Part shown: positions 79 to 57,580 of the stretch, piece after piece
How positions within the stretch are numbered: the first letter of the stretch is position 1
How the letters are laid out: every line of letters begins with the position of its first letter
Origin: Candidatus Aminicenantes bacterium
GTDB lineage: Bacteria > Acidobacteriota > Aminicenantia > Aminicenantales > Saccharicenantaceae
NCBI GenBank assembly: GCA_034679465.1
Contig: JAXDAV010000032.1
Coordinates: 59,247-123,246 of the forward strand
Direction: 5' to 3'
Length of the DNA stretch: 64,000 bases
Program-made: the position numbers and the translations under genes
The notes under the pieces: model-generated
Told to the model about the DNA's origin: nothing
Seen by the model: the letters and a program-made list of their open reading frames with translations, nothing else
Database searches by the model: none

Positions 79-501
79 TCATCCGGCCTGAGCTTGTCCG
101 GCCGGCGCTTCCGGTTCCACGAACTTCACTTCCAAGGCCACGAGCTTCGTCAGGACCTGGGGGACATTCTGTCCCCTCTCGAGGCCGTAGGGATTGAACT
201 GCACGCCGGCCTGGTATTTGTAGCTCTGGCCGGCGTTGAACGCCGACCAGCGCACCCGGCCCCGGAGATCGAGCGGCACCCGCTCGCCGGGGACCGACAG
301 CTGGAGCCAGATCCTGGACTTGAATTTCAGAGGCTTCCGGGTCAGGAAGCGGACGCCGCCGCGGCTGAGGTCGAGGACCGGGCAGAACTCCTCGTCGACC
401 CCGGCCTTGGACGAGAAGAGCCTCTCCCTTCGGTAGGAAACGGTCGCCCCGGGGATCTTGAACCGCTGACAGAGACGTCTTTCGACTTCCTTTTCGGCCA
501 T
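79..501 (-). CDS. PilZ domain protein (c-di-GMP binding)
   Basis: RxxxR (QRFKIPGATVSYRRER) followed by DLSRGG matches the PilZ RxxxR...D/NxSxGG motif. Start taken at the internal ATG (MAEKEVERR), not the upstream ATG at 552. Confidence 0.6.
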   Translation of the reverse strand: MAEKEVERRLCQRFKIPGATVSYRRERLFSSKAGVDEEFCPVLDLSRGGVRFLTRKPLKFKSRIWLQLSVPGERVPLDLRGRVRWSAFNAGQSYKYQAGVQFNPYGLERGQNVPQVLTKLVALEVKFVEPEAPAGQAQAG

Positions 502-576
502 TCGGGTCCTCCGTAAGGGATGCCTCCACTTGCTCGAAGGTATACCAAACACCGGACGCGGAAGTCAAATCGGGGC

Positions 577-1650
577 CTATTCCTCGAGGATGACGGCCCT
601 CGCCGGGGGAAGCGAAAGCGAGGCCCGGGCGGAAACGGAGCTGCCGCCCGAGGTGGTCCGGGCGTAGGCGAAAGACAGGACGCTGACCTTCTGATAGGAA
701 GGCGGCAGGGGCCTCGGCGGCTTCTTGGCTATGAGGTCTTTGATCGCTTTGTAGGCCAGGGCCAGGGCGTCGACGATGTTGACCCCGCTGGCCATGGGGT
801 CGTTCTTCGGCGGCGGCATGTACGGCTTCTGGCCCTGCATGAGCGGCCCGCCGAGGGGGAAGGTGAACGCGGCCGGAGTGGCGGCGATCTTGCGGCTGCG
901 CAAGACCAGCTTGCCGTCGATATAGAGGGAGATCTCGCCCTCCCGGACCGGGTTCGACGGCGTGGCCGGGCGCGGCGAGAACAAGTCCTGGGACGACGGT
1001 CCGGCCGGCTGGGCCATGTCGACGATGTCGACGTGGAGGCGGATCGGCTTGCGGCAGATGATATCGCCGGCTTTGAGATCGAGGATGAACTCGTAGGTGT
1101 CCGTGCGATCGAAGAGCCCGCGCAGGGGTATGGTCAGGATGTGAAAGCCCTTCGGCCAGTGGCCCCCCTCGAGGACGTAGGGACCGAGCGAGATCCGGTA
1201 GAACGCCTCGTTCAGGAGCTCGAGACCGACGTCGACCGAAGCCGGAAGGCCGGTCGCCGGCGTCCTGGCGTAGGAGAGGAGGTTGAGATCGTAGACCAGG
1301 GGATAGACCCGCTTCCAGGAGGCCCAGAAGCTGAGGAGGCCGCGGATGGCGTATTCGTTGAGAAAGCCGAAGTCGGGGTCGTTGTCGAGATAGGTCTCGA
1401 AATAGTCCGCGGTCAGGGCCCTTTCGGCCGCCCGGTCGCCCAGCTTGGAGGCGAGGAAAGGCAGGATGAACGCCGCGGCCTGCCTGTCTTCCGCTTCGAG
1501 ATTTTTGGACTCCTCGGAGAGGTAATCCCAGGCGGCCCGGTAGTCGGGAGCGCGGCCGAGGAGCGAACTCAGCTCCTGCTTCCAGTCCGCCCGCAGAGAG
1601 GCGGCGACGGCGAGGAGGACGGCCAGGGCAACCGCGAATCTTCTAATCAT
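577..1650 (-). CDS. secreted hypothetical protein (N-terminal signal peptide)
   Basis: N-terminus MIRRFAVALAVLLAVAASLRA looks like a signal peptide. No recognisable catalytic motif. Its start overlaps the upstream TonB gene by 8 nt (1643-1650). Confidence 0.55.
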   Translation of the reverse strand: MIRRFAVALAVLLAVAASLRADWKQELSSLLGRAPDYRAAWDYLSEESKNLEAEDRQAAAFILPFLASKLGDRAAERALTADYFETYLDNDPDFGFLNEYAIRGLLSFWASWKRVYPLVYDLNLLSYARTPATGLPASVDVGLELLNEAFYRISLGPYVLEGGHWPKGFHILTIPLRGLFDRTDTYEFILDLKAGDIICRKPIRLHVDIVDMAQPAGPSSQDLFSPRPATPSNPVREGEISLYIDGKLVLRSRKIAATPAAFTFPLGGPLMQGQKPYMPPPKNDPMASGVNIVDALALAYKAIKDLIAKKPPRPLPPSYQKVSVLSFAYARTTSGGSSVSARASLSLPPARAVILEE

Positions 1651-2584
1651 TGTAGACGAACTCGAAGGTTATCTCGAGGAGGTCGCCGGGGAAATCGGCG
1701 GGCAGGGCGGGGAAGGGGAGCGAGGCCCGGAGGGCTTCGAGCGCGGACCGGTCGAGGAGCTCGAGGCTGGTCCCTTCGAGGATCTCGATCGAATCGAGCT
1801 CGCCGGTCTTCTTGATGACGACGATCATGCTGATCTTGGCCGCTTGGGGGACCTCCGGCACGGAGGGCAGGGTCCAGTTGACCTGCAGCCGGTCGATGAC
1901 GGACGTGGCCCACGGCAGAAGATCGTAGTCCTTGATGGGGATGGACATCCCGACCCGCTGGCGTCCGCCGCCGCCGCCGCTGCCCGATCCCCGGCCGCCG
2001 GTCCCGGGGCCGTATCCGCCCACGCCCCCGGGATAGGCGCCCCGGCTGTATTTCGAAAAATCAGGGAGGGGGGCCCCGCCGCCGATCCCGGGAGGGCCGG
2101 GAGGCGTTCCCGGCGGGGCGAGGGGGATGGTCAGGTCTGATTTGCCGTGCGTGGTGATCGACTCCCGGAACTTGGAAGACAGGGAGGGGATGGCGGAACC
2201 GGAGCCCGGGGGCGGGACGAGCCAACCAGCGCCCGGGATGGCATCCCCCGGGGCGAGCGTCTGCTCGGGCGCGGCTTCCGGGCCCGGCTCGGGCTCCGCC
2301 GGGCGCTTGGCCTCCGGGCCGGGCCCGGCGGGCCCCTGCGGTCCCGGAACGTCGGCGAGGCCCCGGCCTCCGACGATCCGGGGGATGCTCACCCCGAGGG
2401 GCGGAACGATGACGACCGAGCGGACCTCCTCCTTCCCGACGGGCAGGATCTTGACCGTGAACCGGCCGTAATAGACGAGCACGCCCAGGAGGGCATGAAA
2501 GAGCAGAGTGACGATGAGACCGAGGGCCCGATCGCGGCGCGACAAGGAGCTCTTTTCCGGCGGGGAGAGCGGATTCTCTTGCAT
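1643..2584 (-). CDS. tonB: TonB family protein (energy transducer, C-terminal domain)
   Basis: N-terminal TM anchor (LIVTLLFHALLGVLVYY), a long Pro/Gly-rich spacer, and a C-terminal TonB-like fold (...SIEILEGTSLELLDRSALEALRASLPFPALP...). Confidence 0.7.
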   Translation of the reverse strand: MQENPLSPPEKSSLSRRDRALGLIVTLLFHALLGVLVYYGRFTVKILPVGKEEVRSVVIVPPLGVSIPRIVGGRGLADVPGPQGPAGPGPEAKRPAEPEPGPEAAPEQTLAPGDAIPGAGWLVPPPGSGSAIPSLSSKFRESITTHGKSDLTIPLAPPGTPPGPPGIGGGAPLPDFSKYSRGAYPGGVGGYGPGTGGRGSGSGGGGGRQRVGMSIPIKDYDLLPWATSVIDRLQVNWTLPSVPEVPQAAKISMIVVIKKTGELDSIEILEGTSLELLDRSALEALRASLPFPALPADFPGDLLEITFEFVYND

Positions 2585-2646: not shown

Positions 2647-4821
2647 TCAGCGTCGGGCGACGGAAACGAGGTAGAGGAAGCAGGCGGCGTTGAGGAGGGT
2701 CAGGCGGAGGAGAAGCGCCGGGATTCCGAACAGGGGGATGATCAGGCCCGAGGCGAGGATGACGCCGGCGAACGAAGCCAGCAGGTCGATGCCGTAACCG
2801 AGGCCGGGATGGGGCGTCCCGGGGAGGAGGCGCCTGTTGGCCGAGACGAAAAGGGCCCCCGAAAGGACGCCGAAGCCGAAGAGGAGGGCGAAGGGAACGG
2901 GCTCGCCGGTCCCGGCCGAAAGGCTCAGCGAGGTCAGAAGCAAAAGGCCCACGAAGAGGCCCTGGACGACGACCAGGTCCGATCGGCCCGGGCGCTTTCT
3001 CGAGCGGGCCGCGAACGATCCGATGACCAGTCCGGCCATGAACAGGGCCAGGAGAAGGGGGATCTTTCCGTAGACGAAACCGAAGCGGGACTGAATGACG
3101 ATGAAGACGGCCAGCTCGACGGCCATCGACGTGAAGCCCATGACCGCCACCGGGATAAGGAACCGGGCCGGCCCTCGCCTTCGGAAGAGCGCGAGAGCGC
3201 CGAGCCCGAGGGCGAAGAGCCCGAGCGGAGCGTCGAGGAGCCAGGCCGGGCCGATGCGGCCCGCGGCCCGGAGGAGCCCGGCTTCGAAGCCGCGGAACTG
3301 GGCCGCCCACAGGACGGCATGGAAATAGTAGCTCACCGGGACGAGGTCGCGGTTGATCCTGGCCCCGGGTGCGGACAGCTTGCCGGCGAGATATTCGAGG
3401 CGGGCCGGATCGAGGCGGGCCGGGAGCATGCCGGGGCTGACGAAGCGCAGGCCCAGGCCGAGCCGGTCGACGGCCTCCGAGAGCCGCGCGGGATCGACGG
3501 TGAGGGGGCCGTCGGAGGCCAGGAAGACGCAGTTCGCGCCGGGCACGGCCCGGACCTCGGGGAAGACGCCCCGAAGGGTGGCCGCGAGCGAGCTCAGGAA
3601 CTGGGCGAGAGGCTCGCTGATGTAATTCTCGGCCGAGGGGACGACGAAGCCGAAGACGCCCCCGGGCGAAAGCCTGTCCCGCGCCTCCAGGAAGAACTCC
3701 CGGGTGTAATACCGGTTGACCTGGGCCGTCGCCGGCGGGGGCAGGCTGAGGAGGATCGCGTCGTAGCGCTCGGCCGTCCGGGCGAGAAAGGCCCGGCCGT
3801 CGCGATGGAAGATGCCGACCCGCGGGTCGTCGAGGGCGGCGCGGTCCGACCCGGTCAGATGCTTCTTCGCCAGCCGGATGACGGCCGGGTCGATCTCGAC
3901 GCAATCGACGCGGATGCCCGGGTGCTTCAGGGCCTCGGCCGCCCCGCCGCTCGCGCCGCCGCCGATCAGCAGGACGCGGCGCGGCCCTTCGCGCTGAAGA
4001 AGCGCGAAGTGGACCGATTCCTCGGCCGCTCCCACGTCCGGGTGGGAAAAGACGGCGATGCCGTTGTCGAAGAAGGTGACCTGCTCCTCGTTCCGGATGA
4101 CCTGGAGCCGGCCGTACGGCGTGTCCTCCGTGTCGACGAGGCTCAGCGGCCGCCAGGCGGCCTTCTGGGCCGGGACGTCCCAAACGGCGATCCCGGCCGC
4201 CAGAGCCAAGGCCAGGGCCGCGGCGAGGGCCGGCTTCGCCCGCACGGGCCTCAGCGTGACCAGGACGGCGATCGCGGCCGCCGCGCCGGCCGCGGCGGCG
4301 CCCTGCCAGTTCGACAGGCGCGGGATGAGCGCGAAGTGAACGACGAGGCCGGCCGCGGCCGCCCCGGCCGATTCGAGCAGGTAGACCGTCGCGACGTCGC
4401 CGCCGAGGAGCCCGGCGTTCAGGGCGAAGGCGTGTCCCAGGGGAAAGCTCAGGAGCAGGCCCAGGGCGAAAGCGAACCCGAGGGCGGGCAAAAGGCCGGT
4501 CAGCTCGGCCGGGAGGATGCCCAAGATCCGATGGGAGAACCTCAAGGCGGCCAGCCCGAGGGCGAAAAGCGCGATCACGAGGCCGTAGAGACCCGCGAGC
4601 CTCGCCGCCCCGCCCGGCTTCCTTCCGGGCTTGATCAGGCTGCCGGCCCCGCCCCAGAAGAGCCAGGCGCCGAGAACGAGGCCGAAGATGAGCTCGTTGC
4701 CCGTGAATTCGGCGCCGAATTCCCTGAGGAGGAAGGCCTGGAAGGCCGTGGCCAGGAAGCCCAGGATGAAAGGCGGCAGCCGGGGGCTCAGGCCCAGATC
4801 CCGGGGATCGGCGTCCCGCAT
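2647..4821 (-). CDS. polytopic membrane protein fused to a spermidine synthase-like (PABS) domain
   Basis: An N-terminal block of hydrophobic helices, then a PABS-like domain (VLLIGGGASGGAAE..VDCVEIDPAVI..DAILLSLPPP), then more TM helices. True start placed at the ATG encoding MRDADPRDL, since the upstream 300 codons of the listed ORF are an Arg-rich artefact overlapping the radical SAM gene. Overlaps the radical SAM gene by 34 nt. Confidence 0.65.
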   Translation of the reverse strand: MRDADPRDLGLSPRLPPFILGFLATAFQAFLLREFGAEFTGNELIFGLVLGAWLFWGGAGSLIKPGRKPGGAARLAGLYGLVIALFALGLAALRFSHRILGILPAELTGLLPALGFAFALGLLLSFPLGHAFALNAGLLGGDVATVYLLESAGAAAAGLVVHFALIPRLSNWQGAAAAGAAAAIAVLVTLRPVRAKPALAAALALALAAGIAVWDVPAQKAAWRPLSLVDTEDTPYGRLQVIRNEEQVTFFDNGIAVFSHPDVGAAEESVHFALLQREGPRRVLLIGGGASGGAAEALKHPGIRVDCVEIDPAVIRLAKKHLTGSDRAALDDPRVGIFHRDGRAFLARTAERYDAILLSLPPPATAQVNRYYTREFFLEARDRLSPGGVFGFVVPSAENYISEPLAQFLSSLAATLRGVFPEVRAVPGANCVFLASDGPLTVDPARLSEAVDRLGLGLRFVSPGMLPARLDPARLEYLAGKLSAPGARINRDLVPVSYYFHAVLWAAQFRGFEAGLLRAAGRIGPAWLLDAPLGLFALGLGALALFRRRGPARFLIPVAVMGFTSMAVELAVFIVIQSRFGFVYGKIPLLLALFMAGLVIGSFAARSRKRPGRSDLVVVQGLFVGLLLLTSLSLSAGTGEPVPFALLFGFGVLSGALFVSANRRLLPGTPHPGLGYGIDLLASFAGVILASGLIIPLFGIPALLLRLTLLNAACFLYLVSVARR

Positions 4822-5912
4822 GTCGCGCACTTGCCCTTTTTGAGCCCGCCGGCCTCGACGCTGTATCCGGTCCTGCGGATGACCTCCTTGCCGCAACCGG
4901 GGCAGTACGTGTTCTCGCCCTCGTGGCCGGGGATGTTGCCGACGTAGACGAAGCGCAGGCCCTCCTCGAGCGCGACGCGACGGGCCGCCTCGAGCGTGGA
5001 CACGGGCGTGGGAGGCAGGTTCTTGACCAGGTACATCGGATGGAAGCGGGTGAAATGGAGCGGGACGCGGGCGCCGGCCTCGTCCCCGATCCAGCGGCAC
5101 ATGTCGCGGATGACGTCCATCCTGTCGTTCAGCGTCGGGATGACCAGGTAGACGATCTCGAGCCAGACCTTGGACCGGGCCACGGTCCGGATGGTCTCCA
5201 GCACGGGCTCGAGGCCGCCCCGCACGTACTCGGCGTAGAACGTCTCCGTGAATCCCTTGAGATCGACCTTGACGGCGTCGACGACTTCCAAGAGGTCGGT
5301 GAGCGGTCCGGGGTTGATGTGGCCGCCGGTCACCACGACGCTGCGGACGCCCCTGCGCCTGGCCTGAACGGCCGTATCGTACATGTACTCGAAGAAGACG
5401 ATCGGTTCCGAATAGGTGTAGGCGATCGAGGGACAGCGGGACGCGGCGGCCCGGGCGGCCGCGGCTTCGGGGGCCAGGTCGAAGGCCTCGATCTGCTCGG
5501 GCCGGACCTGGGAGATCTCCCAGTTCTGGCAGAACCTGCAGTTCACGTTGCATCCGGCCGTGGCCAGGGACAGGGCCGGCGTGCCCGGCAGGACATGATA
5601 GAAGGGCTTCTTTTCGATGGGGTCGATGTTGAGACTGCAGACCTTGCCGTAGACGAGCGTGTAGTAGGCGCCGCCGATGTTCTCCCGGACGCCGCAATAC
5701 CCCCGTTCCTTGTCGCCGAGCCGGCAGAGCCTGGGGCAGAGCCGGCATTCGATCTCCCGGTCGGGGAGCTTGGCGTAGTAGCGGGCCTCAACGCGGGAGA
5801 GATTCGGCCCGGACGCGGCCGCCTCCAGGCGGCGCCCGACCGCGGGCAGGCCGCCGCCCAGGACCAGGCCGGCGCCCGCGGCGCCGCCGCGCAGGAAGCT
5901 CCGCCTGTTCAT
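4788..5912 (-). CDS. radical SAM enzyme, AmmeMemoRadiSam (AmrS/TIGR04337-like) type, with N-terminal twin-arginine signal
   Basis: CNVNCRFCQNW is a Cx3Cx2C radical SAM cluster motif. N-terminal CRLCPRLC...YCGVREN...DPIEKKPFYHVLPGT is typical of AmrS-type enzymes. The first 40 aa (MNRRSFLRGGAAGAGLVLGGGLPAVGRRLEAAAS) form a canonical Tat signal. No alternative in-frame ATG/GTG/TTG start lies downstream. The ATG overlaps the DUF362 stop (ATGA). Confidence 0.8.
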   Translation of the reverse strand: MNRRSFLRGGAAGAGLVLGGGLPAVGRRLEAAASGPNLSRVEARYYAKLPDREIECRLCPRLCRLGDKERGYCGVRENIGGAYYTLVYGKVCSLNIDPIEKKPFYHVLPGTPALSLATAGCNVNCRFCQNWEISQVRPEQIEAFDLAPEAAAARAAASRCPSIAYTYSEPIVFFEYMYDTAVQARRRGVRSVVVTGGHINPGPLTDLLEVVDAVKVDLKGFTETFYAEYVRGGLEPVLETIRTVARSKVWLEIVYLVIPTLNDRMDVIRDMCRWIGDEAGARVPLHFTRFHPMYLVKNLPPTPVSTLEAARRVALEEGLRFVYVGNIPGHEGENTYCPGCGKEVIRRTGYSVEAGGLKKGKCATCGTPIPGIWA

Positions 5913-6793
5913 TCGACCGTCTCCTCGACCGTCTCGATCGATTCCGGGTCGGCGGCGCCGAGGCCCATCTTTGCGGCCGTCCGGAGATAGCCCGGGGCCC
6001 GGCCCTCTTCCCGGAGGGTCGGCAGTCCCGCGGCCCCGCGGAGCCGCTCGACAATGGACCAGCCGACGGCGTCGGCGGCCACGGGATCGAGGCTGAAGAC
6101 GAGGCCCCCGAACTTGCCGGCCCAGCGGGCATGATACGACGGGCCTCTATGGAACTGGACGACGAGGGCGTCGAGGACGGTCAGGCGGTGCTTGGATTTG
6201 ACCGGCGGCGCGTCGAAGACCTCGGCGACGAAGGGATCACAGCGGCCGTCGTGATACTTGTTCGGATTGTGGATGGCCCCGAAGTAGTTCTTCAGGCCCC
6301 CCGTCACGCCGGCCAGACCATGGTCCTTGAGGATGGCCAGGCTGATCGAGGCCGTGACGAGCTCGGTCTGGATCTTCGAAAAGAGGCTCCCCACGCCGAG
6401 GTGGGCGACGAGGTCCGGTCCGTAACCGACGCCGTCCGCGTCCGTGCCGAAGACCTTGATCCCGTTCCGGGCGGCGGTGACGGCGTAGCCGGCGTCCCGG
6501 AGCTCCCGCGTCGTCCGGTCCCAGACGAAGAGGTTCTTCTCGGCGAGGCCGTTGCGGCCGAGCCACCCGGCGAGGGACAGGGCGACCTCGGGCCGGGTGC
6601 TGAGGGCCCGGCCGCCGATGGTGTTGACCTTGATGCCGACGCGGTCGTCCGGCCGGAAGAGCCCCGGGCCGCCGCCGAGGAGGGCGAGCCCCCGGGCGAA
6701 CAGGCGGTCGACGACCGCCCGGTCGGGATCGCCGCCGGGCCTCCAGGCGCGCTCCGAGCGGACGACGACGACGCGCGATCTGGCCATGGTCAT
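5909..6793 (-). CDS. DUF362 domain protein
   Basis: Central ...AILKDHGLAGVTGGLKNYFGAIHNPNKYHDG... resembles DUF362 family members. Start taken at MTMARSRVVVV rather than the Arg-rich upstream extension. 4-nt overlap with the downstream radical SAM gene. Confidence 0.6.
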   Translation of the reverse strand: MTMARSRVVVVRSERAWRPGGDPDRAVVDRLFARGLALLGGGPGLFRPDDRVGIKVNTIGGRALSTRPEVALSLAGWLGRNGLAEKNLFVWDRTTRELRDAGYAVTAARNGIKVFGTDADGVGYGPDLVAHLGVGSLFSKIQTELVTASISLAILKDHGLAGVTGGLKNYFGAIHNPNKYHDGRCDPFVAEVFDAPPVKSKHRLTVLDALVVQFHRGPSYHARWAGKFGGLVFSLDPVAADAVGWSIVERLRGAAGLPTLREEGRAPGYLRTAAKMGLGAADPESIETVEETVE

Positions 6794-6918
6794 CCCATGA
6801 TGGGCCTTTTGGCGGGGCCTGTCAACCGAGCCCGGGGGACGACGAGGGGGGCGGCGGCTTGCCAAGAGCGGTCCCCTCCGTTATAGTAACAGGGTATTCA
6901 CCGGCCCGGAGGTTGAGG

Positions 6919-7848
6919 ATGACAAGCGCGCTTCATCAGAGGGTCCCGGCCGTCGCGGCGGTCCTGGCGGTCCTTGTCTTTCCGGCGCCGGCGGCCGTCC
7001 CCCAGGCGCGCCCGGCCAGCCCCGAGCTGGCCGCCCTGGCCCCCAGGCTCGAGTCCTGGACGGCGTCGACCGCCCCCCGGAGCTACTTCCCCGATGACCT
7101 GTTCGAGTACATCAACGGCGCGGCCGAGAGCTACCTGAGCTACGATTTCCGCGAGCTGCTTGTCGTCGACCTCGAAAGGGCGGGCGCCGAGGCCACGCTG
7201 ACGCTGGAGATCTACGACATGGGGCTTCCCCTCAACGCCTTCGGCATCTTCGCGGCCGAGCGCTATCCCGAGAACAAGGTCGTGCCCGTCGGCGAGCTGG
7301 GCTACGTCGAGGGCGAGGCCCTGAACTTCCTCGCCGGCCGGTTCTACGTGAAGATGCTGGCCTTCGGTCTCGGCGAGGCCACGGAGGCGTCCCTCGTCGA
7401 GGCCGCGGCCAAGGTGGCCGGCGGCATCAAGTCTGAGGGCCTGCTCCCGGCGCTCGTCCTGGCCTTTCCCCAAGACGGCCTCGTCGCCCGGAGCGAGCGC
7501 TACATCAAGCGCAACTTCATGGGCTACGAGTTCCTCCATGACGGCTATGTCGCGACGTACGGATCGGGCGGCCGAGAGATCGAGGGCTTCTTCATCGACG
7601 GGGGCACGGAGGCCGAGGCCCAGGGGATGCTGCCGAGGCTCCTGGACGCCCTGGCCGCGGACGGCCAGGCTGTGGAGAAGATCCCGTCCGGCCATCACGC
7701 CCGGAACCGCTACGGCCGGCACCTCTTCATCGCCCGGGTCGGGGCCGTGCTCTGCGGCGCCATGCGCGTCCCCGACGGCCTCGAAGCGGCCGGGCGATCG
7801 CTTCTCGAGTCGACGGCCGCCGCCCTGAAGGGGGGCCGCCCGAAATAG
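6919..7848 (+). CDS. secreted hypothetical protein
   Basis: Start at ATG 6919 (MTSALHQRVPAVAAVLAVLVFPAPAAVPQA looks like a signal peptide) with GGAGG about 8 nt upstream. No recognisable motif. Confidence 0.55.
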   Translation: MTSALHQRVPAVAAVLAVLVFPAPAAVPQARPASPELAALAPRLESWTASTAPRSYFPDDLFEYINGAAESYLSYDFRELLVVDLERAGAEATLTLEIYDMGLPLNAFGIFAAERYPENKVVPVGELGYVEGEALNFLAGRFYVKMLAFGLGEATEASLVEAAAKVAGGIKSEGLLPALVLAFPQDGLVARSERYIKRNFMGYEFLHDGYVATYGSGGREIEGFFIDGGTEAEAQGMLPRLLDALAADGQAVEKIPSGHHARNRYGRHLFIARVGAVLCGAMRVPDGLEAAGRSLLESTAAALKGGRPK

Positions 7849-7875: not shown

Positions 7876-8889
7876 ATGGACGAGGACAGGTACTTCAAGG
7901 CCGCGCTCGCGGTCGTCCTCCTCTTCATCGCCGGCTTCGTCCTGAAGCTGGCCCGGCCGGTCCTGATCCCGTTCATCCTGGCCGTCTTCCTCTCCTACCT
8001 CGTCGACCCCGCGCTGACCTTCCTCACCCGCTGCCGCTGTCCGCGGCCGGGGGCCGTGGTCGCGGTCCTGGCGATGATGTTCGTCTTCCTCTATCTCGCC
8101 GGCGTCCTCGTCTATTCGAGCGGCAAGGCCTTCGTGGCCGAGCTGCCGAAGTACCAGGAGCGGATCGGGGACCTGGTCCGGCTCATCGAATCCGGCCTGG
8201 GCCCGTTCCGGATCGACGTGCCCGCGGCCCTGAGCGGGCTCGACGCCAATCGGGTCGGCACGGCCGTGGTCAAAGCCATCGGCCCGTTCTTCGAACTTCT
8301 CGGCAAGCTCCTGCTCGTCTTCCTCTTCCTCGTCTTTATCGTGGCCGGGCGGGGCCGGGCCGAGAGGAAATTCCCCAGGGCCGTCGGCGACGGCAAGGCC
8401 GGCCGCGTCCGCGGCATCGTCGAGCGCATCAACGTCCAGGTCCGCAAATACCTGATCATCAAGACGGGGGCCAGCCTGGTCAACGGGCTGATGGTCTATG
8501 CGGTCCTGAGCCTCTTCGGCGTCGATTTCGCCCTCCTCTTCGGCCTCGTCGCCTTCCTGCTGAACTTCATCCCCAGCATCGGCTCGCTCCTGGCCGCGAT
8601 CCTGCGCGTCGGGTTTGCCTTCTTCCAGTTCGGCACCTTCTGGACGCCGTTCTGGATCCTGGTCATCACCGTCGGCCTCGACACGATCATGGGCGATTTC
8701 GTCGAGCCGCGGGTCATGGGCAAGGGGCTGGGGCTCAGCCCTCTGCTCGTCTTCTTCTCCCTGCTCTTCTGGGGCTGGCTCTGGGGCATCCCCGGCATGA
8801 TCCTTTCGGTGCCCCTGACGGCGGTCATCAAGATCGTCTGCCAGAACATCCCGTCGCTCAAGCCGGTGGCCGTGCTGATGGGGCCGTGA
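7876..8889 (+). CDS. AI-2E family transporter (UPF0118/PerM-like)
   Basis: About eight TM helices with the characteristic C-terminal ...GIPGMILSVPLTAVIKIV... motif of AI-2E transporters. Confidence 0.75.
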   Translation: MDEDRYFKAALAVVLLFIAGFVLKLARPVLIPFILAVFLSYLVDPALTFLTRCRCPRPGAVVAVLAMMFVFLYLAGVLVYSSGKAFVAELPKYQERIGDLVRLIESGLGPFRIDVPAALSGLDANRVGTAVVKAIGPFFELLGKLLLVFLFLVFIVAGRGRAERKFPRAVGDGKAGRVRGIVERINVQVRKYLIIKTGASLVNGLMVYAVLSLFGVDFALLFGLVAFLLNFIPSIGSLLAAILRVGFAFFQFGTFWTPFWILVITVGLDTIMGDFVEPRVMGKGLGLSPLLVFFSLLFWGWLWGIPGMILSVPLTAVIKIVCQNIPSLKPVAVLMGP

Positions 8890-8907
8890 GGGCGGCCGGG
8901 GACGCCG

Positions 8908-9675
8908 TCAGGGCAGGACCAGGTCGTCGGCCTCGATGACAAAGGCCTCGGGTGAGATCCTCTTGATCTTCCGCCCGAAGAAGGCCTTGAGGGCCTTTTC
9001 GGCCGCCGCCTGTTCGGCCGCCTTCTTGGATGCACCCTTCGACTTGGACAGGACCTTCTCGCCGAGGCGCACCTCGACGGCGAAGATCCGGGCGTGGGGC
9101 GGCCCCTTTTCCGAGAGCAGGCGATAGGCGGGGGCGGGGAGCCCGGCCTTCTGGCAGATCTCCTGGAGGGCCGACTTGGAGTTGTTGATCGTTTGCGATT
9201 CGGCTCGGATGGGCTTCCGGCAGGGCTCGAGAAGGCCGCAGAGATACGATTTCGCGGCCTCGAATCCGCCGTCGAGATAGACCGCGCCGGCCAGGGCCTC
9301 GAAGGCGCCGGCCAGGATCGAGACTTTCTTCCGGCCGCCGCTCTTCTCTTCGCCGCGGCCGAGGCGGATGGCCTTGTCGAGCTTGAGGGTTCGGGCGAGA
9401 TGGGCCAGCGCCAGCGTGCTCGTCGCCGCGGCCTTGAGCTTGGACAGCTCGCCCTCGCTCCGTCCCGGGAAGGCGCGGTGGAAGAACTCGGCGGTGACCA
9501 GCCCGACGACGGAATCGCCCAGGAATTCGAGCAGCTCGTTGTCCTCCGGGGCCCCGGGGGCCTTTTCGTAGGCGTAGGAGCTGTGGGTCAGGGCTTTGGC
9601 GAGCAGGTCCCGGTCCGCGAAAGCGTAGCCGATCGCCTTCTCCAGGCGGTCGAGCGTCCTGCGGTCCGCGGTCAT
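8908..9675 (-). CDS. rnc: ribonuclease III
   Basis: RNase III signature ELLEFLGDSVVGLV plus a C-terminal dsRBD (KSALQEICQKAGLPAPAY...). Confidence 0.9.
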   Translation of the reverse strand: MTADRRTLDRLEKAIGYAFADRDLLAKALTHSSYAYEKAPGAPEDNELLEFLGDSVVGLVTAEFFHRAFPGRSEGELSKLKAAATSTLALAHLARTLKLDKAIRLGRGEEKSGGRKKVSILAGAFEALAGAVYLDGGFEAAKSYLCGLLEPCRKPIRAESQTINNSKSALQEICQKAGLPAPAYRLLSEKGPPHARIFAVEVRLGEKVLSKSKGASKKAAEQAAAEKALKAFFGRKIKRISPEAFVIEADDLVLP

Positions 9676-10973
9676 GGGCGCGCCGGCGGGGCCGTTCCGT
9701 CGAAGGGATAGGCGATCCGGCCGCCGACGATGGTCATGACCGGCCCTCCCCGGAGCGTCCAGCCGTCGAAGGGCGTGTTCCGTCCCTTGGACTCGAACGC
9801 GCTCCGGTCGACCGTGACCGGGAGGTCGAGGTCGAGGACGGTCAGATCGGCGTCGGCGCCGGCTTCGATGCGGCCCTGGCGCGGCAGGCTGAGCAGGCGG
9901 GCCGGCCCGGCGGCGAAAAGCTCGACGAACCGGGCCAGGGAGATCGTGCCCGGCCCGACCAGCCGGTCGAGAACGAGGGAGACGGCGGTCTCCAGGCCGA
10001 CGACGCCGAAGGGCGCGGCGGCCAACCCGCGGCCCTTTTCCTCGGCTGTGTGCGGGGCGTGGTCGGTGGCGACGGCGTCCACGGCCCCCGTCCGGATGGC
10101 TTCGACCAGGGCGGCCCTGTCCGCGGCCGACCGGAGCGGCGGGTTCATCTTGAAGTCCGCGTTGCCGGCGCCGAGGGCCTCCTCGGTGAGGAGCAGGTGG
10201 TGAGGGGTCGCTTCCGCCGAAACGCGGACCCCTCGGGCCTTGGCTTCTCCGACCAGGCGGACGCCGCCGGCCGTGGACAGGTGGGCGATGTGGACCGCGG
10301 TCCCCGCGGCCTCGGCCAGGATGATATCGCGGGCGACCATGATGTCCTCGGCGGCCGCGGGAATGCCGGCGACCCCGAGGCGGGCCGATACGGGCCCCTC
10401 GTTGATGACGCCGCCTTCGGCGAGCGGCCTGTCTTCGCAGTGGTCGATGATGAGCGAGCCGGCCTTCGCCGCCGCCTCCAGGGCCCGGCGCATGAGCCGG
10501 CTGTCCGCGACGGGGCGCCCGTCGTCCGAGAAGGCGACCGCCCCGGCCGCGACGAGATCGGCCATGTCGACGAGCTCCCGGCCGGTCGAACCGACGGTGA
10601 CGGCGGCGATGGGCAGGACGCGGGCCAGGCCGGCCCGCCGGGCCTCCGCCAGGATTCTCTCGGTCGTTTCCCGGCTGTCGTTCGCCGGCCGGGTGTTGGG
10701 CATGGCGCAGACCGAGGTGAAGCCGCCGCGGACGGCGGCCCGGACCCCGGTGAGAATGGTCTCTTTGGCCTCGTCCCCGGGCTCCCTCAAGTGGGCGTGC
10801 ATGTCGATGAGGCCCGGCACGACGACGAGGCCGCGGACATCGACCGCCCGCGCCCCGTCGGCCTCGAGGCGGGGTCCGACGGCGGCGATCCGGCCGCGCT
10901 CGATGAGGACGTCGAGGAGGCCGTCGAGCCCGGACGAGGGATCGACGACGCGGCCGCCGCGGAGGAGGATCAC
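9672..10973 (-). CDS. pyrC: dihydroorotase
   Basis: Amidohydrolase metal ligands (GLIDMHAHLREPG...) and overall dihydroorotase architecture. 4-nt overlaps with rnc and pyrR. Confidence 0.85.
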   Translation of the reverse strand: MILLRGGRVVDPSSGLDGLLDVLIERGRIAAVGPRLEADGARAVDVRGLVVVPGLIDMHAHLREPGDEAKETILTGVRAAVRGGFTSVCAMPNTRPANDSRETTERILAEARRAGLARVLPIAAVTVGSTGRELVDMADLVAAGAVAFSDDGRPVADSRLMRRALEAAAKAGSLIIDHCEDRPLAEGGVINEGPVSARLGVAGIPAAAEDIMVARDIILAEAAGTAVHIAHLSTAGGVRLVGEAKARGVRVSAEATPHHLLLTEEALGAGNADFKMNPPLRSAADRAALVEAIRTGAVDAVATDHAPHTAEEKGRGLAAAPFGVVGLETAVSLVLDRLVGPGTISLARFVELFAAGPARLLSLPRQGRIEAGADADLTVLDLDLPVTVDRSAFESKGRNTPFDGWTLRGGPVMTIVGGRIAYPFDGTAPPARP

Positions 10974-12889: not shown

Positions 12890-14006
12890 TCATACCTTCT
12901 TCTTGCGCAGGACGAGCGCCGCCTTGATGAAGTCGTCGAGGTCGCCGTCGAGGACGCGGTCGGTGTCTCCCGTTTCCAGGCGCGTCCGCAGGTCCTTGAT
13001 CATCCGGTAGGGGTGGAGGACGTAGGACCGGATCTGGTTGCCCCAGGCGATGTCGGACTTGGCGTCCTCGAGCTTCTCCAGCTTGGCGCTCTGCTTCATC
13101 TTCTCGAGCTCGTAGAGGCGGGCCTTGAGGATCTTCATGGCCATGGCCTTGTTCTTGTGCTGGGAGCGCTCGTTCTGGCACTGGACGACGATGCCGGTCG
13201 GGAGGTGGGTGATGCGGACCGCTGAATCCGTCCGGTTGACGTGCTGGCCGCCGGCGCCCGAAGCCCGGTAGGTGTCGATCCGGAGGTCCTCGGGATTGAC
13301 CTCCACTTCGATGTCCTCGTCGACCTCGGGGTAGACGAAGACCGCGGCGAAGGAGGTGTGCCGCCGCTTGGCGGCGTCGAAGGGCGAGATGCGGACGAGC
13401 CGGTGGACGCCGGTCTCCTGGCTGAGATTGCCGAAGGCGAAGTCGCCCTCGAAGCGGAGGGTCGCGCTCTTGAGGCCCGCCTCGTCCCCGGGCTGGTGGT
13501 CGAGGACCTCGGTCTTGAAGCCTTTGCGCTCGGCGTAGCGGAGGTACATCCGGAGGAGCATCTCGGCCCAATCCTGCGACTCGGTGCCGCCGGCCCCCGG
13601 ATGGACGGTCAGGATGGCGTTCCGGGGATCGTCCGGGTCATCGAACAGGGCCCTGAGCTCGGCCTCCCGGAGGTCGTTCTCGAGCCGGTCGACGGCCGCG
13701 CCGAGGTCCGCTTCGATGTTTTCGCCCTCGGCGGCGAGCTCGGTGAGGACCTCGATCTCCTCCTTCTGGCCGCTGATCCGCTTGAAGAACCCGAGGTCCT
13801 TCTCCAGGAGCTTCTTCTTCTGCTGAAGGGATTGCGAAAGCTTCTGGTCCTGCCAGACCTCGGGCGAGGCCAGGCGGGCGTTTATCGAGGCCAGCTCGGC
13901 GGTCTTGGGGTCGAGGTCAAAGAAAACCTCGGACCTCTTCGATCTTGGCGAAGAGGCCGGCGATCCGGGTCCGGATGTCGATGGCTCGGGTTTCGGGTGG
14001 GGTCAT
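12890..14006 (-). CDS. prfB: peptide chain release factor 2 (programmed +1 frameshift)
   Basis: The first 29 codons ([29 protein letters not shown]) end at an in-frame TGA within CTT TGA C (13916-13922, minus strand). A +1 shift continues [25 protein letters not shown]... in frame to 12890, with the GGQ motif ([16 protein letters not shown]) present. Confidence 0.85.
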
Positions 14007-14023
14007 GGCGATCGCTGTCCTTG

Positions 14024-14587
14024 TCAGTACTGGACGACCCAGAAGTCCGTCTTCTTGCCGGCGGCGGCGTTCAGCTTCTTCAGGAGGTCGGCGGCCCGGT
14101 CCCTGGCGGCGTAACCCCCCAGCCGGACCTTGTAGTTCACTTCGCCCCGGGGGGGATCGACGACGATGGCCGTGTGGCCCTGCTTCCGGTATTTGTCCGC
14201 CTCGGCCTGGGCCTGGGCCCGGTCGGCCACGGCGAGCACCTGGACATAGTAGAGGCCGCGCGCGGCGGGCGCGGGCGTCTTCGTCTCGACCGTCTTCGAG
14301 GGGGCCGCGGTCTCGGCCGCCGGCTGCTGGGACGGCGTCGCCTGGGGCCGGAGAGGCGCCGCGCCGCCGGCCGCGGTGTCGGACGGGGCCGGCTTGACCG
14401 AGGCCTCCTTGACGGGTTCGGGGATCTGCTGAGTGACGATCCGGGTCGGAGCGGCGGCGCGGGCCTGGGTCTTCCCGACGGAGACGCCGAGGAGGAAGAT
14501 GAACACGCCCAGCGCCAGGACGCCGAGGAAGATGACGACGAGAAGGCTGCTCGAGACCTGGATCTCGCGGAATTCTTTGTTGGCCAT
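14024..14587 (-). CDS. SPOR domain protein (peptidoglycan-binding, membrane-anchored)
   Basis: N-terminal TM helix, a Pro/Ala-rich linker, and a C-terminal SPOR-like fold (YYVQVLAVADRAQAQAEADKYRKQGHTAIVV...YKVRLGGY). Confidence 0.65.
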   Translation of the reverse strand: MANKEFREIQVSSSLLVVIFLGVLALGVFIFLLGVSVGKTQARAAAPTRIVTQQIPEPVKEASVKPAPSDTAAGGAAPLRPQATPSQQPAAETAAPSKTVETKTPAPAARGLYYVQVLAVADRAQAQAEADKYRKQGHTAIVVDPPRGEVNYKVRLGGYAARDRAADLLKKLNAAAGKKTDFWVVQY

Positions 14588-15375
14588 CAGCTCTGCTTCT
14601 TCTCCTGGCTCTTATCGTACGTGAAAGCCCGCAGGAGCTCAAGCGGCAGGGGGAAGACGATGGTCGAGTTCTTCTCCGTCGCGATCTCCCCCAGCGTGCC
14701 GAGGAACCTCAGCTGGAGCGCCTGCGGGTTCCGCGAGATGATGTCGGCGGCCTGGGTCAGCTTGTCGGCGGCCTGGAACTCGCCGTCGGCGTGGATGACC
14801 TTGGCCCGGCGATCGCGCTCGGCCTCGGCCTGCTTGGCGATGGCCCGGACCATGTTCTCCGGCAGGTCGACGTGCTTCATCTCGACCAGCTGGACCTTGA
14901 TGCCCCAGGGATCGGTGTGGCGGTCGATGATCTCCTGGAGGCGGGCGTTGAGCTTCTCCCGCTCCGAGAGGAGGTCGTCGAGATCGACCTGGCCGAGGAC
15001 GCTGCGCAGGGTGGTCTGGGCCAGCTGGGAGGTGGCGTAGAGGTAGTCCTGGACCTCGACAACGGACTTGGCGGGCTCGACGACCCGGAAGTAGAGGACG
15101 GCGTTGACCTTGACCGAGATGTTGTCGCGGGTGATGACGTCCTGAGGCGGGACGTCCATGGCGATGAGCCGCAGGCTGATGCGGACCATCCGGTCGATCG
15201 GGGAGAAGACGAGGATGAGCCCGGGGCCCTTGGGCTGGGGGAGCAGGCGCCCGAGCCGGAAGATGACGCCCCGCTCGTACTCCCGCAGGATCTTGATCGA
15301 ATTGAGGATGTAGAGAACGAGGATGCCGACGACGATGATCGGATAAGTGATCACGATGCCCTCCTGACCGGTCAT
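14587..15375 (-). CDS. SPFH/Band 7 (stomatin-like) protein
   Basis: N-terminal TM helix and an SPFH-like domain ([14 protein letters not shown]...). 4-nt overlap with the upstream NfeD gene. Confidence 0.8.
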
Positions 15376-16694
15376 GATTTGACGACCCGTATCTTCAGGC
15401 CGTCGAGAGCCTCGACGACCTTGACTTTCTCGCCGGCGCGGACGCTCTCGTCGGCCACGGCCTCCCAGAGCTCGCCGTGGACGAAGACCCAGCCGGCGGG
15501 GGAGAGGTCGGTCCGGGCCGTCCCCGTTTCGCCGATCATCCCTTCGCGCCCGGTGGTCGCGCGGCGGGTGTGGGCCTTGAACACCAGGGCGACCAGGAAC
15601 AGGACGATCGCGGCGAGGCCGAGGACGACCGGCAGGACGATGCCGAGGCTGGGCCGGAGCTCGGCGATGGGGGCCTTGATGAGCATGAGCGAGCCGATGA
15701 TCATGGCGGCGATCCCTCCGACGGCCAGCATGCCGAAGCTCTGGACCTTGATTTCGAGGATGAACAAGATGACGGCCAGGAGGATCAGGCCCAGGCCCAC
15801 GTAGTTGATGGGCAGGATCTGGAAGGCGAAGACGGCCAGGAGGAGCGAGATGCCCCCCAGGACGCCGGGCAGGATGGCCCCGGGGTTGGAGAACTCGAAA
15901 TAGAGCCCCAGGAGCCCGATCATGAGCAGGATGTAGGCCAGGTTCGGGTTGGAAATGGTCAGGAGGAACTTCTGCCGGGCCGTCAGGGGCAGGTCGACGA
16001 CGGGCCGGCCGGCCAAGGCCAGCGTCCGGGCGCTGCCGTCGAAGCGCTCGATCGTCCGGCCGTCGAGCCAGGCGATGATCTCGGCCTCGGAGGAGGCGAC
16101 GAGGTCGATGAGCCCGCCGGCCAGGGCTTCCTGTTCCGTGTAGGACAGGCTCTTGCGCACGGCGTCCTCGGCCATGCTCACGTTCCGGCCGCGCTTCTCG
16201 GCGATCGAACGGACATAGGCCGCGGCGTCGTGGGTGACCTTGTCCTCCATCGTCTTGTCCATGGCCTGGCCCGTGAGCGAGATGCCCACGGGATGGGCCG
16301 AGCCGGTGCTCGTGCCGGGGGCCATGGCGAAGACGTCGCAGGCCAGGGCGATGAGGAAGCCCGCGGAGGCGGCCCGCGAGCCGGCCGGACCGACGAACGC
16401 GGCCACGGGCGTCTCGGCGTTGACGATCGCCTCGATGATCTCGCGCATCGAGGAGTCGAGCCCGCCGGGCGTATCGAGGGTCAGGATGACCAGCTCGGCG
16501 CCGTCGCGGCCGGCCCGTTCCAGCGACTTGACCACATACTCGGAGGTGACCGGATGGATGGGGGTGTCGACCTTGATCTTGATGACGGCGGCCGAGGCCG
16601 GGACGGCCCCGCCCAGCAGGAGGGTCAGGGCCGCGAGAAGAAGGACGCTTGGGACTTTCAACGCGGCTTTATTATAAAATCGGGCCCGGCTCAA
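15372..16694 (-). CDS. NfeD-like membrane-bound serine protease (stomatin operon partner)
   Basis: Signal peptide, ClpP-like protease domain ([12 protein letters not shown]...), a multi-TM region and a C-terminal OB-fold. This is the classic pairing with stomatin. Confidence 0.8.
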
Positions 16695-44138: not shown

Positions 44139-44256
44139 GACAGCTCGTTTCCTTCCAGAACTGACTATTTTACCGCAAGATACGGGCCCGGTCAAACGAC
44201 CCATTGACTTCGGCCGGCCGCAGGCGTTAAATGGGGGCTAAAAAAAAGAGGTCACC

Positions 44257-57228: not shown

Positions 57229-57302
57229 GCGCCCGTAGCTCAGTTGGATAGAGCGTCTGACTACGAATCAGCAGGTCGGGTGTTCGAGTCACCCCGGGCG
57301 CG
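57229..57302 (+). tRNA. tRNA-Arg (anticodon ACG)
   Basis: Cloverleaf by eye: acceptor gcgcccg/cgggcgc, D-arm gctc...gagc, anticodon loop ctACGaa, T-arm gggtg ttcgagt caccc. CCA is not encoded. Confidence 0.8.
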
Positions 57303-57580
57303 CTTCCCTTCTTCTTCAAAATCAATCGTTTATCGGTCGCCCGCCTTTTATGGTTCCTTATCGCAATTTCAGTAATTCGTTTGGCAATGATGGAAAACCG
57401 GACCAGCGAGATCGGGCCGGGAAGTGAGGGCTGAGTGGCCGCAGCATGAATAGGCGAACCGGAGAAAACGGCGCTCAGGTGAAGCCGATGGCAACGAAGG
57501 GGCTTGTTTCGTTTCCGGCCCGGATGTAGAATCAGAACTAAGGGAAGACGAGAGCGCGTTGCGTTAAAAGGAGGTCCGAA

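Follow-up and report, generated by a model that had tools for sequence, protein, structure and literature searches.

The three translationally coupled genes on the minus strand of this Candidatus Aminicenantes contig, which encode a DUF362 protein, a radical SAM enzyme of AmrS type and a membrane protein of 724 aa, probably belong to an oxygen-sensitive, SAM-dependent enzyme system that is exported and works outside the cytoplasm, and we put at about even the chances that the operon represents, in Aminicenantes, a variant of AmmeMemoRadiSam that is widespread and extracytoplasmic. The AmmeMemoRadiSam system was defined from gene neighbourhoods and consists of a radical SAM enzyme (TIGR04337), an AMMECR1-like protein A (TIGR04335) and a Memo-like protein B (TIGR04336). 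To our knowledge, radical SAM enzymes are regarded as confined to the cytoplasm, given their need for SAM, a low-potential electron donor and shelter from oxygen; a broad clade with conserved export signals, exported partners and a linked, outward-facing SAM-type binding domain would challenge that view.

Were the reading to hold in full, the module would rank as the first radical SAM system of the periplasm, with the first dedicated bacterial SAM exporter among its parts. The long-enigmatic Memo and AMMECR1 proteins, whose conservation extends from bacteria to humans and which have been tied to human disease, would then gain a concrete cellular location, and the bacterial system would offer a tractable handle on them by supplying a compartment, a membrane partner and an accessory list (DUF362, DUF6599 and DsbD_2). 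Searchable literature yielded no functional study of AmmeMemoRadiSam, of AMMECR1 together with Memo, of DUF362, of a Tat-exported or periplasmic radical SAM enzyme or of an MFS-spermidine synthase fusion, and none that names the MFS/aminopropyltransferase-like fusion, DUF362 or DUF6599 as AmmeMemoRadiSam partners, in agreement with the first-pass annotation, which knew of no characterised pathway with this gene combination; part of the system may already be described.

Structure of the operon and its protein families

The gene order and the two overlaps that had been proposed for the operon hold both in coordinates and at the junctions, and the translational coupling is real: the DUF362 stop and the radical SAM start share the sequence ATGA (4-nt overlap), and the membrane gene contains the radical SAM stop 34 nt inside it (34-nt overlap). 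Positions below are those of the window, i.e. the whole 64-kb stretch of DNA that was analysed.

5909-6793, minus strand: DUF362 protein gene (294 aa, LarA-like fold in the predicted structure, without signal peptide)
4788-5912, minus strand: AmrS-type radical SAM enzyme gene, TIGR04337 family (374 aa)
5814-5912, minus strand: predicted Tat (twin-arginine) signal peptide of that enzyme, roughly residues 1-33, MNRRSFLRGGAAGAGLVLGGGLPAVGRRLEAAA, as read from the sequence
5694-5747, minus strand: N-terminal four-cysteine motif (C56, C59, C63, C73), invariant in the orthologue alignment
5529-5552, minus strand: radical SAM cluster motif CNVNCRFC (C121, C125, C128), invariant in the orthologue alignment and matched by PF04055
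2647-4821, minus strand: membrane fusion protein gene (724 aa)
4156-4821, minus strand: N-terminal MFS half, six core helices and helix 7, residues 1-222 (DSSP on the structure model)
3250-4155, minus strand: aminopropyltransferase-fold domain, about residues 223-524, predicted periplasmic (PF01564, Foldseek)
2647-3249, minus strand: helix 8 and C-terminal MFS half, residues 525-724 and stop codon (structure model, positive-inside count)

The public gene call places the DUF362 start two codons later.

All three families named in the first-pass annotation (TIGR04337, PF04015 and PF01564) are matched above their cut-offs. The radical SAM enzyme scores 376.4 bits against a TIGR04337 cut-off of 220, its match beginning at residue 43, and reaches only 49.8 on the PFL-activase model TIGR02493, far under the cut-off of 231.75, so that placement in the PFL-activase subfamily, which had been considered from the outset, is dropped on the HMM scores. 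PflA (3c8f) is nevertheless the closest solved structure by sequence (E 3e-7), and the Cx3Cx2C core is common to the glycyl-radical activases; unlike these, the window enzyme carries additional N-terminal four-cysteine and C-terminal cysteine motifs together with an export signal, and no glycyl-radical enzyme gene lies nearby. The N-terminal cysteine motif and the Cx3Cx2C reported earlier are both present, as CRLCPRLC...YCGVREN and CNVNCRFC, and ten cysteines of the enzyme are invariant among orthologues of six or more phyla. The four-cysteine motif could be a candidate auxiliary Fe-S cluster or metal site.

The DUF362 protein passes PF04015 with 68.4 bits against 24. Its predicted structure adopts a LarA-like fold, although the model, built on a shallow alignment, is of moderate quality and its conserved loops are of low confidence; the fold would relate the protein to the LarA superfamily of nickel-pincer nucleotide enzymes (Pfam clan CL0471), from which it differs in being about 130 residues shorter and in giving no match to any PDB entry in a sequence search. 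K55, K156-D157-H158 and N176-P-N-K-Y-H181 are invariant. Because the protein has a single cysteine and a LarA-like fold, we do not regard it as an Fe-S protein, and the earlier suggestion that all three components use SAM, dcSAM or Fe-S chemistry fails for DUF362 in that respect.

According to its structure model, the 724-aa protein combines an MFS transporter of 14 helices with a domain of aminopropyltransferase fold, which is inserted at the centre, between helices 7 and 8. A test for the twelve-helix MFS fold was positive, the inserted domain passes PF01564 (74.4 bits against 22.9), and its PABS fold superposes on 1uir with a Foldseek TM-score of 0.73. The NF037959 model, 'fused MFS/spermidine synthase', is passed marginally (42.7 against 40); what sets the protein apart from other 14-helix MFS proteins is the 300-residue enzyme-like domain between the central helices and the linkage of its gene to that of an exported radical SAM enzyme. 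The number of K+R per loop favours an N-terminus inside the cell, and a positive-inside count over 100 homologues predicts that helix 7 runs from inside to outside and helix 8 from outside to inside. Since the domain is inserted between these two helices, opposite the K/R-rich loops, it is placed outside the cytoplasm.

Export signals, conservation and partner proteins

The N-terminus of the radical SAM enzyme reads NRRSFLR, followed by GGAAGAGLVLGGGLPAVG and then by EAAAS, which fits the Tat pattern of S/T-R-R-x-F-L-K, a weakly hydrophobic region and an A-x-A-like site; the Pfam TAT_signal model, which is short, gives 18 bits against a gathering threshold of 22.7. The TIGR04337 model does not cover this segment. 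Of the 120 closest homologues, 116 share an RRx-hydrophobic motif, and the Tat motif recurs in orthologues of seven other lineages, including Zixibacteria, Ignavibacteria, Terriglobales, Latescibacterota, Thermodesulfobacteriota and Clostridia-labelled MAGs, while six orthologues from Omnitrophota and Planctomycetes have hydrophobic, Sec-like signals in place of Tat. Tat- and Sec-type orthologues alike score 358-398 bits on TIGR04337 (cut-off 220), with model starts at residues 33-61. Among the radical SAM genes with an intact N-terminus in an AMMECR1-anchored metagenome sample, 11 of 12 are Tat-type, and the only signal-free orthologue of those sampled is that of locus L157. L081 and L082 have a TatC gene immediately upstream, a circumstantial pointer to Tat dependence, and in four loci (L066, L068, L076 and L085) the Sec-type radical SAM gene and the MFS fusion gene flank a gene for DsbD_2. 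It counts against the proposed extracytoplasmic variant that Sec-type signals on an Fe-S enzyme, as in Omnitrophota and Planctomycetes, are hard to square with assembly of the cluster in the cytoplasm.

Export signals also occur on the partners. In ten orthologous loci (L053, L056, L065, L067, L069, L081, L083, L084, L115 and L146) DUF362 bears its own Tat signal, and because it does so in several phyla we reject the idea that DUF362 is a cytoplasmic Tat chaperone. Memo, AMMECR1 and their fusions bear Sec or lipoprotein signals: in the Memo-AMMECR1 fusions the TIGR04336 and TIGR04335 matches, both above cut-off, start only beyond an N-terminal signal, and L111 has separate genes for Memo, AMMECR1 and the radical SAM enzyme, with a signal on each. 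As points against export, AMMECR1 proteins without a signal occur in L070 and L059, and L146 has an extra signal-less copy. Counted over the module, signals are borne independently by five different proteins. The first-pass annotation had seen the Tat signal of the radical SAM enzyme but not its consequence, namely that all components are predicted to be exported or outward-facing.

Gene content of the loci was established by targeted HMM searches and greedy gene maps, clustering of stop-to-stop ORFs being swamped by antisense 'shadow' ORFs. By this measure, 67 of 80 species-level loci have a radical SAM gene no more than 8 kb from the fusion gene, co-directional or convergent and in varied gene orders, and the two are neighbours in at least nine phylum-level lineages. 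The adjacency, whose conservation in related genomes the first-pass annotation had left to be checked, thus recurs in many phyla and in different orders, and for that reason is more than chance. Some exceptions weigh against the proposed variant: the fusion gene stands without a radical SAM gene in L048, L051 and L074; conversely, L111 has a Tat-type radical SAM gene with no fusion gene within 10 kb, and the fusion is likewise absent beside those of L109, L110 and L115.

AMMECR1 and Memo, already reported as missing, were not found in the 64-kb window by phmmer with L070 queries against every ORF of 60 aa or more. The implication that the AmrS-type enzyme has been cut loose from these partners does not hold for the family, given that proteins A and B share an operon with orthologous modules in Terriglobales, Thermodesulfobacteriota and metagenomes (loci L053-L084, L059, L070 and L107-L164). 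The window enzyme therefore resembles AmmeMemoRadiSam in passing TIGR04337 and in having orthologous modules that hold A and B, and differs from it in that the window lacks both, that the enzyme carries a Tat signal and that the module adds the MFS fusion, DUF362 and DUF6599.

The last of these is encoded divergently from the operon:

6859-7848, plus strand: DUF6599 protein gene (PF20244), with signal peptide, likely ATG at 6919 (309 aa)

With 154.5 bits on PF20244 (cut-off 27), the gene adjoins the module in 38 of 41 Aminicenantes-type loci, the other three being cut by a contig end, and in Terriglobales it is co-directional with the DUF362 and radical SAM genes. Its orthologues have Sec or lipoprotein-type (lipobox) N-termini. 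DUF6599, which the first-pass annotation left out, is a conserved fourth core member of the module; a PDB sequence search with the protein gave no match.

Location of the chemistry and cargo of the transporter

We propose that the radical SAM enzyme would acquire its clusters in the cytoplasm before Tat carries it out in folded form, and that the signal-less DUF362 of Aminicenantes might leave with it as a complex. Such hitchhiking is known for the HybO/HybC hydrogenase, to which the present case would be analogous in that translational coupling ties the gene of a signal-less DUF362 to that of a Tat-signal partner; for DUF362 we purely infer it. Both enzymes would then act on the outer side of the membrane, either on the outward domain of the MFS fusion or beside it. 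DUF362, with its LarA-like fold, might serve the redox side, a role that a CcdA-like DsbD_2 could fill in the Sec-type lineages, where DsbD_2 genes in the operons recall, by analogy, the known CcdA/DsbD transfer of electrons to the periplasm.

What the transporter might carry depends on how its inserted domain is read. The acid of GGG[DE]G in spermidine synthase selects dcSAM and excludes the carboxylate of SAM. Aligned to SpeE of Thermus thermophilus (1uir/3anx), the window domain, which unlike SpeE sits in an outward transporter loop, has the hydrophobic A290 in place of the E of GGGEG, and S359 and P362 in place of the aspartates of DLTDP; among 100 members of the fusion family, position 290 is D/E in none, 359 is D in 8 and 362 is D/E in 82, the DSTDP site of SpeE appearing as SLPPP in the window protein and mostly as NLP[DE]P across the family. 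The adenosine-binding residues E309, D311 and D341 are kept in the alignment. The earlier description of a membrane protein with an internal aminopropyltransferase-like domain was thus right as to the fold (PF01564), but the protein is an MFS transporter and the domain is without the dcSAM acid and the catalytic aspartates. The last acid conserved in the family (D/E362) is a proline in the window protein, whose domain may hence be catalytically inert.

Because the adenosine residues are kept and the carboxylate-excluding acid is gone, we propose that the outward domain may accept SAM. The mechanism that we favour for the fusion, though only tentatively, is that its MFS part exports SAM or a close adenosyl/amine metabolite, which the outward domain would capture and pass to the radical SAM enzyme, or from which it would move a SAM-derived group onto a substrate in the periplasm or the membrane; we infer, in particular, that the transporter supplies the SAM. 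A full radical SAM pathway outside the cytoplasm, comprising Tat-exported AmrS and DUF362, elsewhere Memo and AMMECR1, and fed SAM by a dedicated MFS transporter, is possible yet doubtful; against extracytoplasmic action of the enzyme in general, we know of no periplasmic radical SAM enzyme, and of neither a recognised SAM pool nor a low-potential reductant in the periplasm. Architecture and export could also be the same with another cargo, a polyamine or other amine being exported, or a lipid-linked precursor flipped, for the outward domain and the exported AmrS, DUF362 and Memo/AMMECR1 enzymes to modify, e.g. in envelope or lipid modification, which we consider unlikely but worth weighing.

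Placing the chemistry in the cytoplasm, so that the signals only target or anchor the proteins or the partners are modified before export, and the MFS fusion handles a product or by-product, would agree with the fact that SAM and reductant are both cytoplasmic, as well as with the signal-less AMMECR1 of L070 and L059 and the signal-free enzyme of L157. We nonetheless judge it improbable, for a Tat or Sec signal with a positive n-region puts the domain that follows it outside, five module proteins bear signals independently, TatC and DsbD_2 are adjacent in some lineages, and the fusion domain itself is predicted to lie outside. Still far less credible is an ordinary membrane spermidine synthase or polyamine exporter that came to lie beside an unrelated radical SAM operon by inherited synteny. 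PF01564 and PRK03612/PRK00811 do give significant E-values, and homologues of the fusion are labelled spermidine synthase by JGI; but all SpeE equivalog HMMs stay far under cut-off (TIGR00417 79 against 249.55, NF002010 103.3 against 260, NF002956 123.4 against 472), and on these scores, together with the active-site residues, we reject a canonical spermidine synthase; the JGI label is probably wrong. Moreover, no family member has the dcSAM-selecting acid and few have the first catalytic aspartate, the adjacency to the radical SAM gene survives rearrangement over at least nine phyla, and the domain is predicted to face away from the cytoplasmic dcSAM pool.

Promoter-like sequences and downstream genes

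The region between the divergent genes, and the genes that follow the operon, comprise the following features.

6797-6887, no strand given: intergenic region with back-to-back promoter-like hexamers for the DUF362 operon and DUF6599 (consensus match only)
1643-2584, minus strand: TonB_2 protein gene (Pfam match), 62 nt past the membrane gene
577-1650, minus strand: gene for a 357-aa secreted hypothetical protein with signal peptide, overlapping the TonB gene by 8 nt
79-552, minus strand: PilZ protein gene (Pfam match), with a 75-nt gap if the ATG at 501 is used

The minus-strand hexamers read TTGACA-17-CATCAT, those of the plus strand TTGCCA-17-TATAGT; by consensus match, three such sites occur in 8 kb against 0.3 expected. 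Downstream, the order of TonB, secreted protein and PilZ genes given in the first-pass annotation stands, as does the 75-bp PilZ gap with the ATG at 501, the TonB spacing being 62 rather than 63 nt. These three genes are ruled out as parts of the system, being absent outside a subset of Aminicenantes: they follow the operon in only about 14 Aminicenantes loci, and L003 has genes for FBPase and a kinase in their place.

Operon structure and conservation of the neighbourhood

The first-pass annotation had described an operon of three coupled minus-strand genes in a window from which AMMECR1 and Memo, the other two components of the AmmeMemoRadiSam system, were absent, and the coordinates, junctions, HMM scores and a phmmer search confirm that observation. 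The genes, in order of transcription, are:

5909-6793, minus strand: DUF362 protein, 294 aa
4788-5912, minus strand: AmrS-type radical SAM enzyme, 374 aa
2647-4821, minus strand: membrane protein (an MFS transporter with an inserted aminopropyltransferase-fold domain, hereafter the MFS fusion), 724 aa

The DUF362 and radical SAM genes meet in an ATGA junction, the radical SAM and MFS fusion genes overlap by 34 nt, and the three-gene arrangement is present on two independent assemblies. The radical SAM enzyme belongs to TIGR04337 (376.4 bits against a cut-off of 220) and not to the PFL-activases, the subfamily that had been named as the competing assignment and whose model gives 49.8 against 231.75; the DUF362 protein passes PF04015 (68.4 bits) and the membrane protein PF01564 (74.4 bits). 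No phmmer match to AMMECR1 or Memo was found among the window ORFs with queries recovered from another locus. The window has a G+C content of about 70%, and its proteins are 65-100% identical to those of MAGs labelled Candidatus Aminicenantes.

Conservation was assessed on 80 loci from species-representative genomes, fetched with a fusion protein alignment and annotated with HMMs built in this analysis. Of the 80, 67 carry a TIGR04337-type gene no further than 8 kb from the fusion gene; the sole loci devoid of one among those with at least 8 kb of flank on both sides are L048, L051 and L074. All tested radical SAM orthologues pass TIGR04337 (358-398 bits). The adjacency outlasts rearrangement of the surrounding genes across phyla, which argues for a functional link between the radical SAM enzyme and the MFS fusion.

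Gene arrangements around the MFS fusion gene differ between lineages. Aminicenantes (41 loci) have a divergent DUF6599 gene followed by the DUF362, radical SAM and fusion genes; Zixibacteria and a MAG with an Ignavibacteria label have the last three of these in that order. In Omnitrophota and Planctomycetes the radical SAM gene comes first and the fusion gene last, in some cases with DsbD_2 between them, and in MAGs labelled Clostridia the order is TatC, radical SAM gene, fusion gene. In Terriglobales, Latescibacterota and Thermodesulfobacteriota the fusion gene converges on an operon whose last gene is that of the radical SAM enzyme.

The trio downstream of the module, which encodes a TonB_2 protein, a secreted 357-aa protein and a PilZ protein, follows it in just some 14 Aminicenantes loci and may be a separate unit. 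This block (window 79-2584, minus strand) is kept also in L006, L008, L009, L017, L023, L025, L031, L032, L037, L040, L041, L047 and L049, and its 357-aa protein has no Pfam match. On the other side of the module, the gap between the DUF362 and DUF6599 genes (6797-6887) holds back-to-back sigma-70-like promoter hexamers; the minus-strand -10 element ends 3 nt ahead of the DUF362 ATG at 6793, and either the transcript is leaderless or a start two codons downstream is used.

Predicted topology and putative binding site of the MFS fusion

Over 150 cluster representatives, 700-780 aa long and 30-53% identical to the window protein, have the identical full-length layout. A very confident AlphaFold2 model built on 100 of these relatives (pLDDT 94.4, pTM 0.94) puts the soluble domain between two sets of seven helices. 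Across the 100 homologues, lysine and arginine are concentrated in the two termini and in every second loop, at means of 1.5-3.4 per loop, as against means of 0.02-0.9 in the alternate loops. Both termini of MFS transporters are cytoplasmic and, together with this charge distribution, that puts the domain between helices 7 and 8, at about residues 223-524, on the outer side.

The nucleotide-binding residues of the domain are kept, namely the glycine-rich loop, E309, D311 and the invariant D341. The dcSAM-selecting acid of the GGG[DE]G motif is hydrophobic in every family member, and most of them have N, S or A in place of the first DSTDP aspartate; the second acid of that motif is kept in 82 of 100 members and is proline in the window protein, a substitution common to just 4 of 120 close homologues. 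The fusion passes NF037959 ('fused MFS/spermidine synthase') narrowly and scores far under the cut-offs of the SpeE equivalog models; on the strength of the latter scores and of the missing aminopropyltransferase acids, a spermidine synthase identity was rejected. We conclude that the protein is an MFS transporter whose predicted outward domain probably has SAM or an adenosyl compound as its ligand.

The model NF002956 (PRK03612, 'membrane-bound SpeE') aligns to fusion residues 41-397, covering the N-terminal seven helices together with the soluble domain. If the topology reasoning used here also applies to spermidine synthases annotated as PRK03612, their catalytic domain might be outward-facing too.

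Export signals of the module and its partners

The radical SAM enzyme begins with MNRRSFLRGGAAGAGLVLGGGLPAVGRRLEAAAS, close to the twin-arginine consensus, and no part of this stretch is covered by the TIGR04337 model, whose match starts at residue 43. The motif recurs in 116 of the 120 closest homologues, the other four resembling truncated gene calls, and orthologues from seven further lineages carry RRxF[LIF][KR]. Ten cysteines, including the N-terminal four-cysteine motif and Cx3Cx2C, are invariant in distant orthologues, and the closest solved relative is PflA. In two Clostridia-labelled MAGs a TatC gene (L082:7799-8488 and L081:7988-8707) directly precedes the genes for the Tat-signal radical SAM enzyme and the MFS fusion. 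Elsewhere in the window, an amidohydrolase (PF07969; 26743-28452, plus strand) starts with MKRRDFLQG, a second Tat-type signal, which suggests that this Candidatus Aminicenantes bacterium makes use of the Tat pathway.

A different type of signal occurs in the Omnitrophota and Planctomycetes, where the radical SAM genes of six loci (L063, L066, L068, L073, L076 and L085) encode short, very hydrophobic Sec-like sequences; these orthologues retain all the invariant cysteines, and their loci are devoid of DUF362. A Sec signal on an Fe-S enzyme fits poorly with assembly of its clusters in the cytoplasm and counts against an extracytoplasmic system. Four of these six loci carry, between the radical SAM and fusion genes, a gene of the CcdA-like DsbD_2 family, which delivers reducing power to the periplasm:

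L066:8285-8935
L076:9318-9977
L068:9197-9868
L085:7610-8281

The partner proteins carry signals of their own in many lineages. DUF362 has a Tat signal in Terriglobales, Latescibacterota, one Clostridia-labelled MAG and metagenome loci; in Aminicenantes, Zixibacteria and Ignavibacteria it has none, and there its gene is closely coupled to that of the Tat-signal radical SAM enzyme, with which it may be co-exported. The N-termini of DUF6599 proteins are of Sec or lipoprotein type. In Terriglobales, the gene immediately downstream of the radical SAM gene encodes a Memo-AMMECR1 fusion that passes both TIGR04336 (266-279 bits) and TIGR04335 (about 179 bits, cut-off 99) and has a signal or lipobox sequence at its start, ahead of both models. 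A metagenome scan anchored on AMMECR1 yielded 12 neighbouring radical SAM genes whose N-terminus is intact, 11 of them Tat-type, and many Memo ORFs in that sample have in-frame signal peptides; at L111 (8836-11755), Memo, AMMECR1 and the radical SAM enzyme are encoded separately, and all three proteins have an export signal of their own. AMMECR1 is signal-less in two Thermodesulfobacteriota loci, and the Tat-type systems at L109, L110, L111 and L115 have no adjacent fusion gene. Tandem Memo-AMMECR1 copies (n=2) occur at L087:7727-10564, and an additional signal-less AMMECR1 at L146:9977-10546. In a Solibacteraceae operon, a gene with a 4Fe-4S ferredoxin domain (L053:16640-17053, minus strand) adjoins DUF6599 at the operon head; its product might carry electrons for the module.

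A proposed extracytoplasmic system and further window features

Family memberships, folds, signal motifs and their conservation, charge-based topology and cross-phylum linkage were computed; from these we infer that the components are actually exported and that they probably cooperate physically at the outer face of the membrane. Taken together, we lean, with moderate confidence, towards an extracytoplasmic variant of AmmeMemoRadiSam functionally tied to the MFS fusion. The part played by the transporter is a more tentative matter: on the reading that we favour, with low confidence, its MFS portion would export SAM, or a closely related adenosyl or amine compound, for the outward domain to receive, and this would supply co-substrate to the exported radical SAM enzyme. 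The main alternative keeps the same architecture and has the transporter export the substrate instead of SAM.

The TIGR04337 family is named and uncharacterised, the fusion architecture has an NCBIfam name, and DUF362 and DUF6599 are Pfam families. In the literature searched we found no description of a coherent extracytoplasmic prediction for the whole system, nor of its conserved link to the MFS/aminopropyltransferase-like fusion, and an earlier mention of either is possible. In radical SAM enzymology the extracytoplasmic prediction is unexpected, and it opens the function of Memo and AMMECR1 to experiment.

Several other features of the window deserve mention. The prfB gene (release factor 2; 12890-14010, minus strand) has a classical programmed +1 frameshift with its site near 13922, the short first frame stopping after ...RGFL at CTT TGA C and the +1 frame encoding the body of RF2 (PCRF and RF-1 domains). 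A cluster of NfeD, SPFH/Band 7 and SPOR-domain proteins lies at 14024-16694 (minus strand), and three consecutive genes at 38714-44204 (minus strand) encode type I phosphodiesterase/nucleotide pyrophosphatase domains (PF01663). At 57229-58654 (plus strand), a tRNA-Arg(ACG) is followed by a DUF5128 six-bladed beta-propeller gene with an unusually low third-position G+C (0.61 against about 0.9); locus L083 of the Latescibacterota also has an NHL/DUF5128 gene (8728-9858) just upstream of the one for the MFS fusion, which may be a coincidence.
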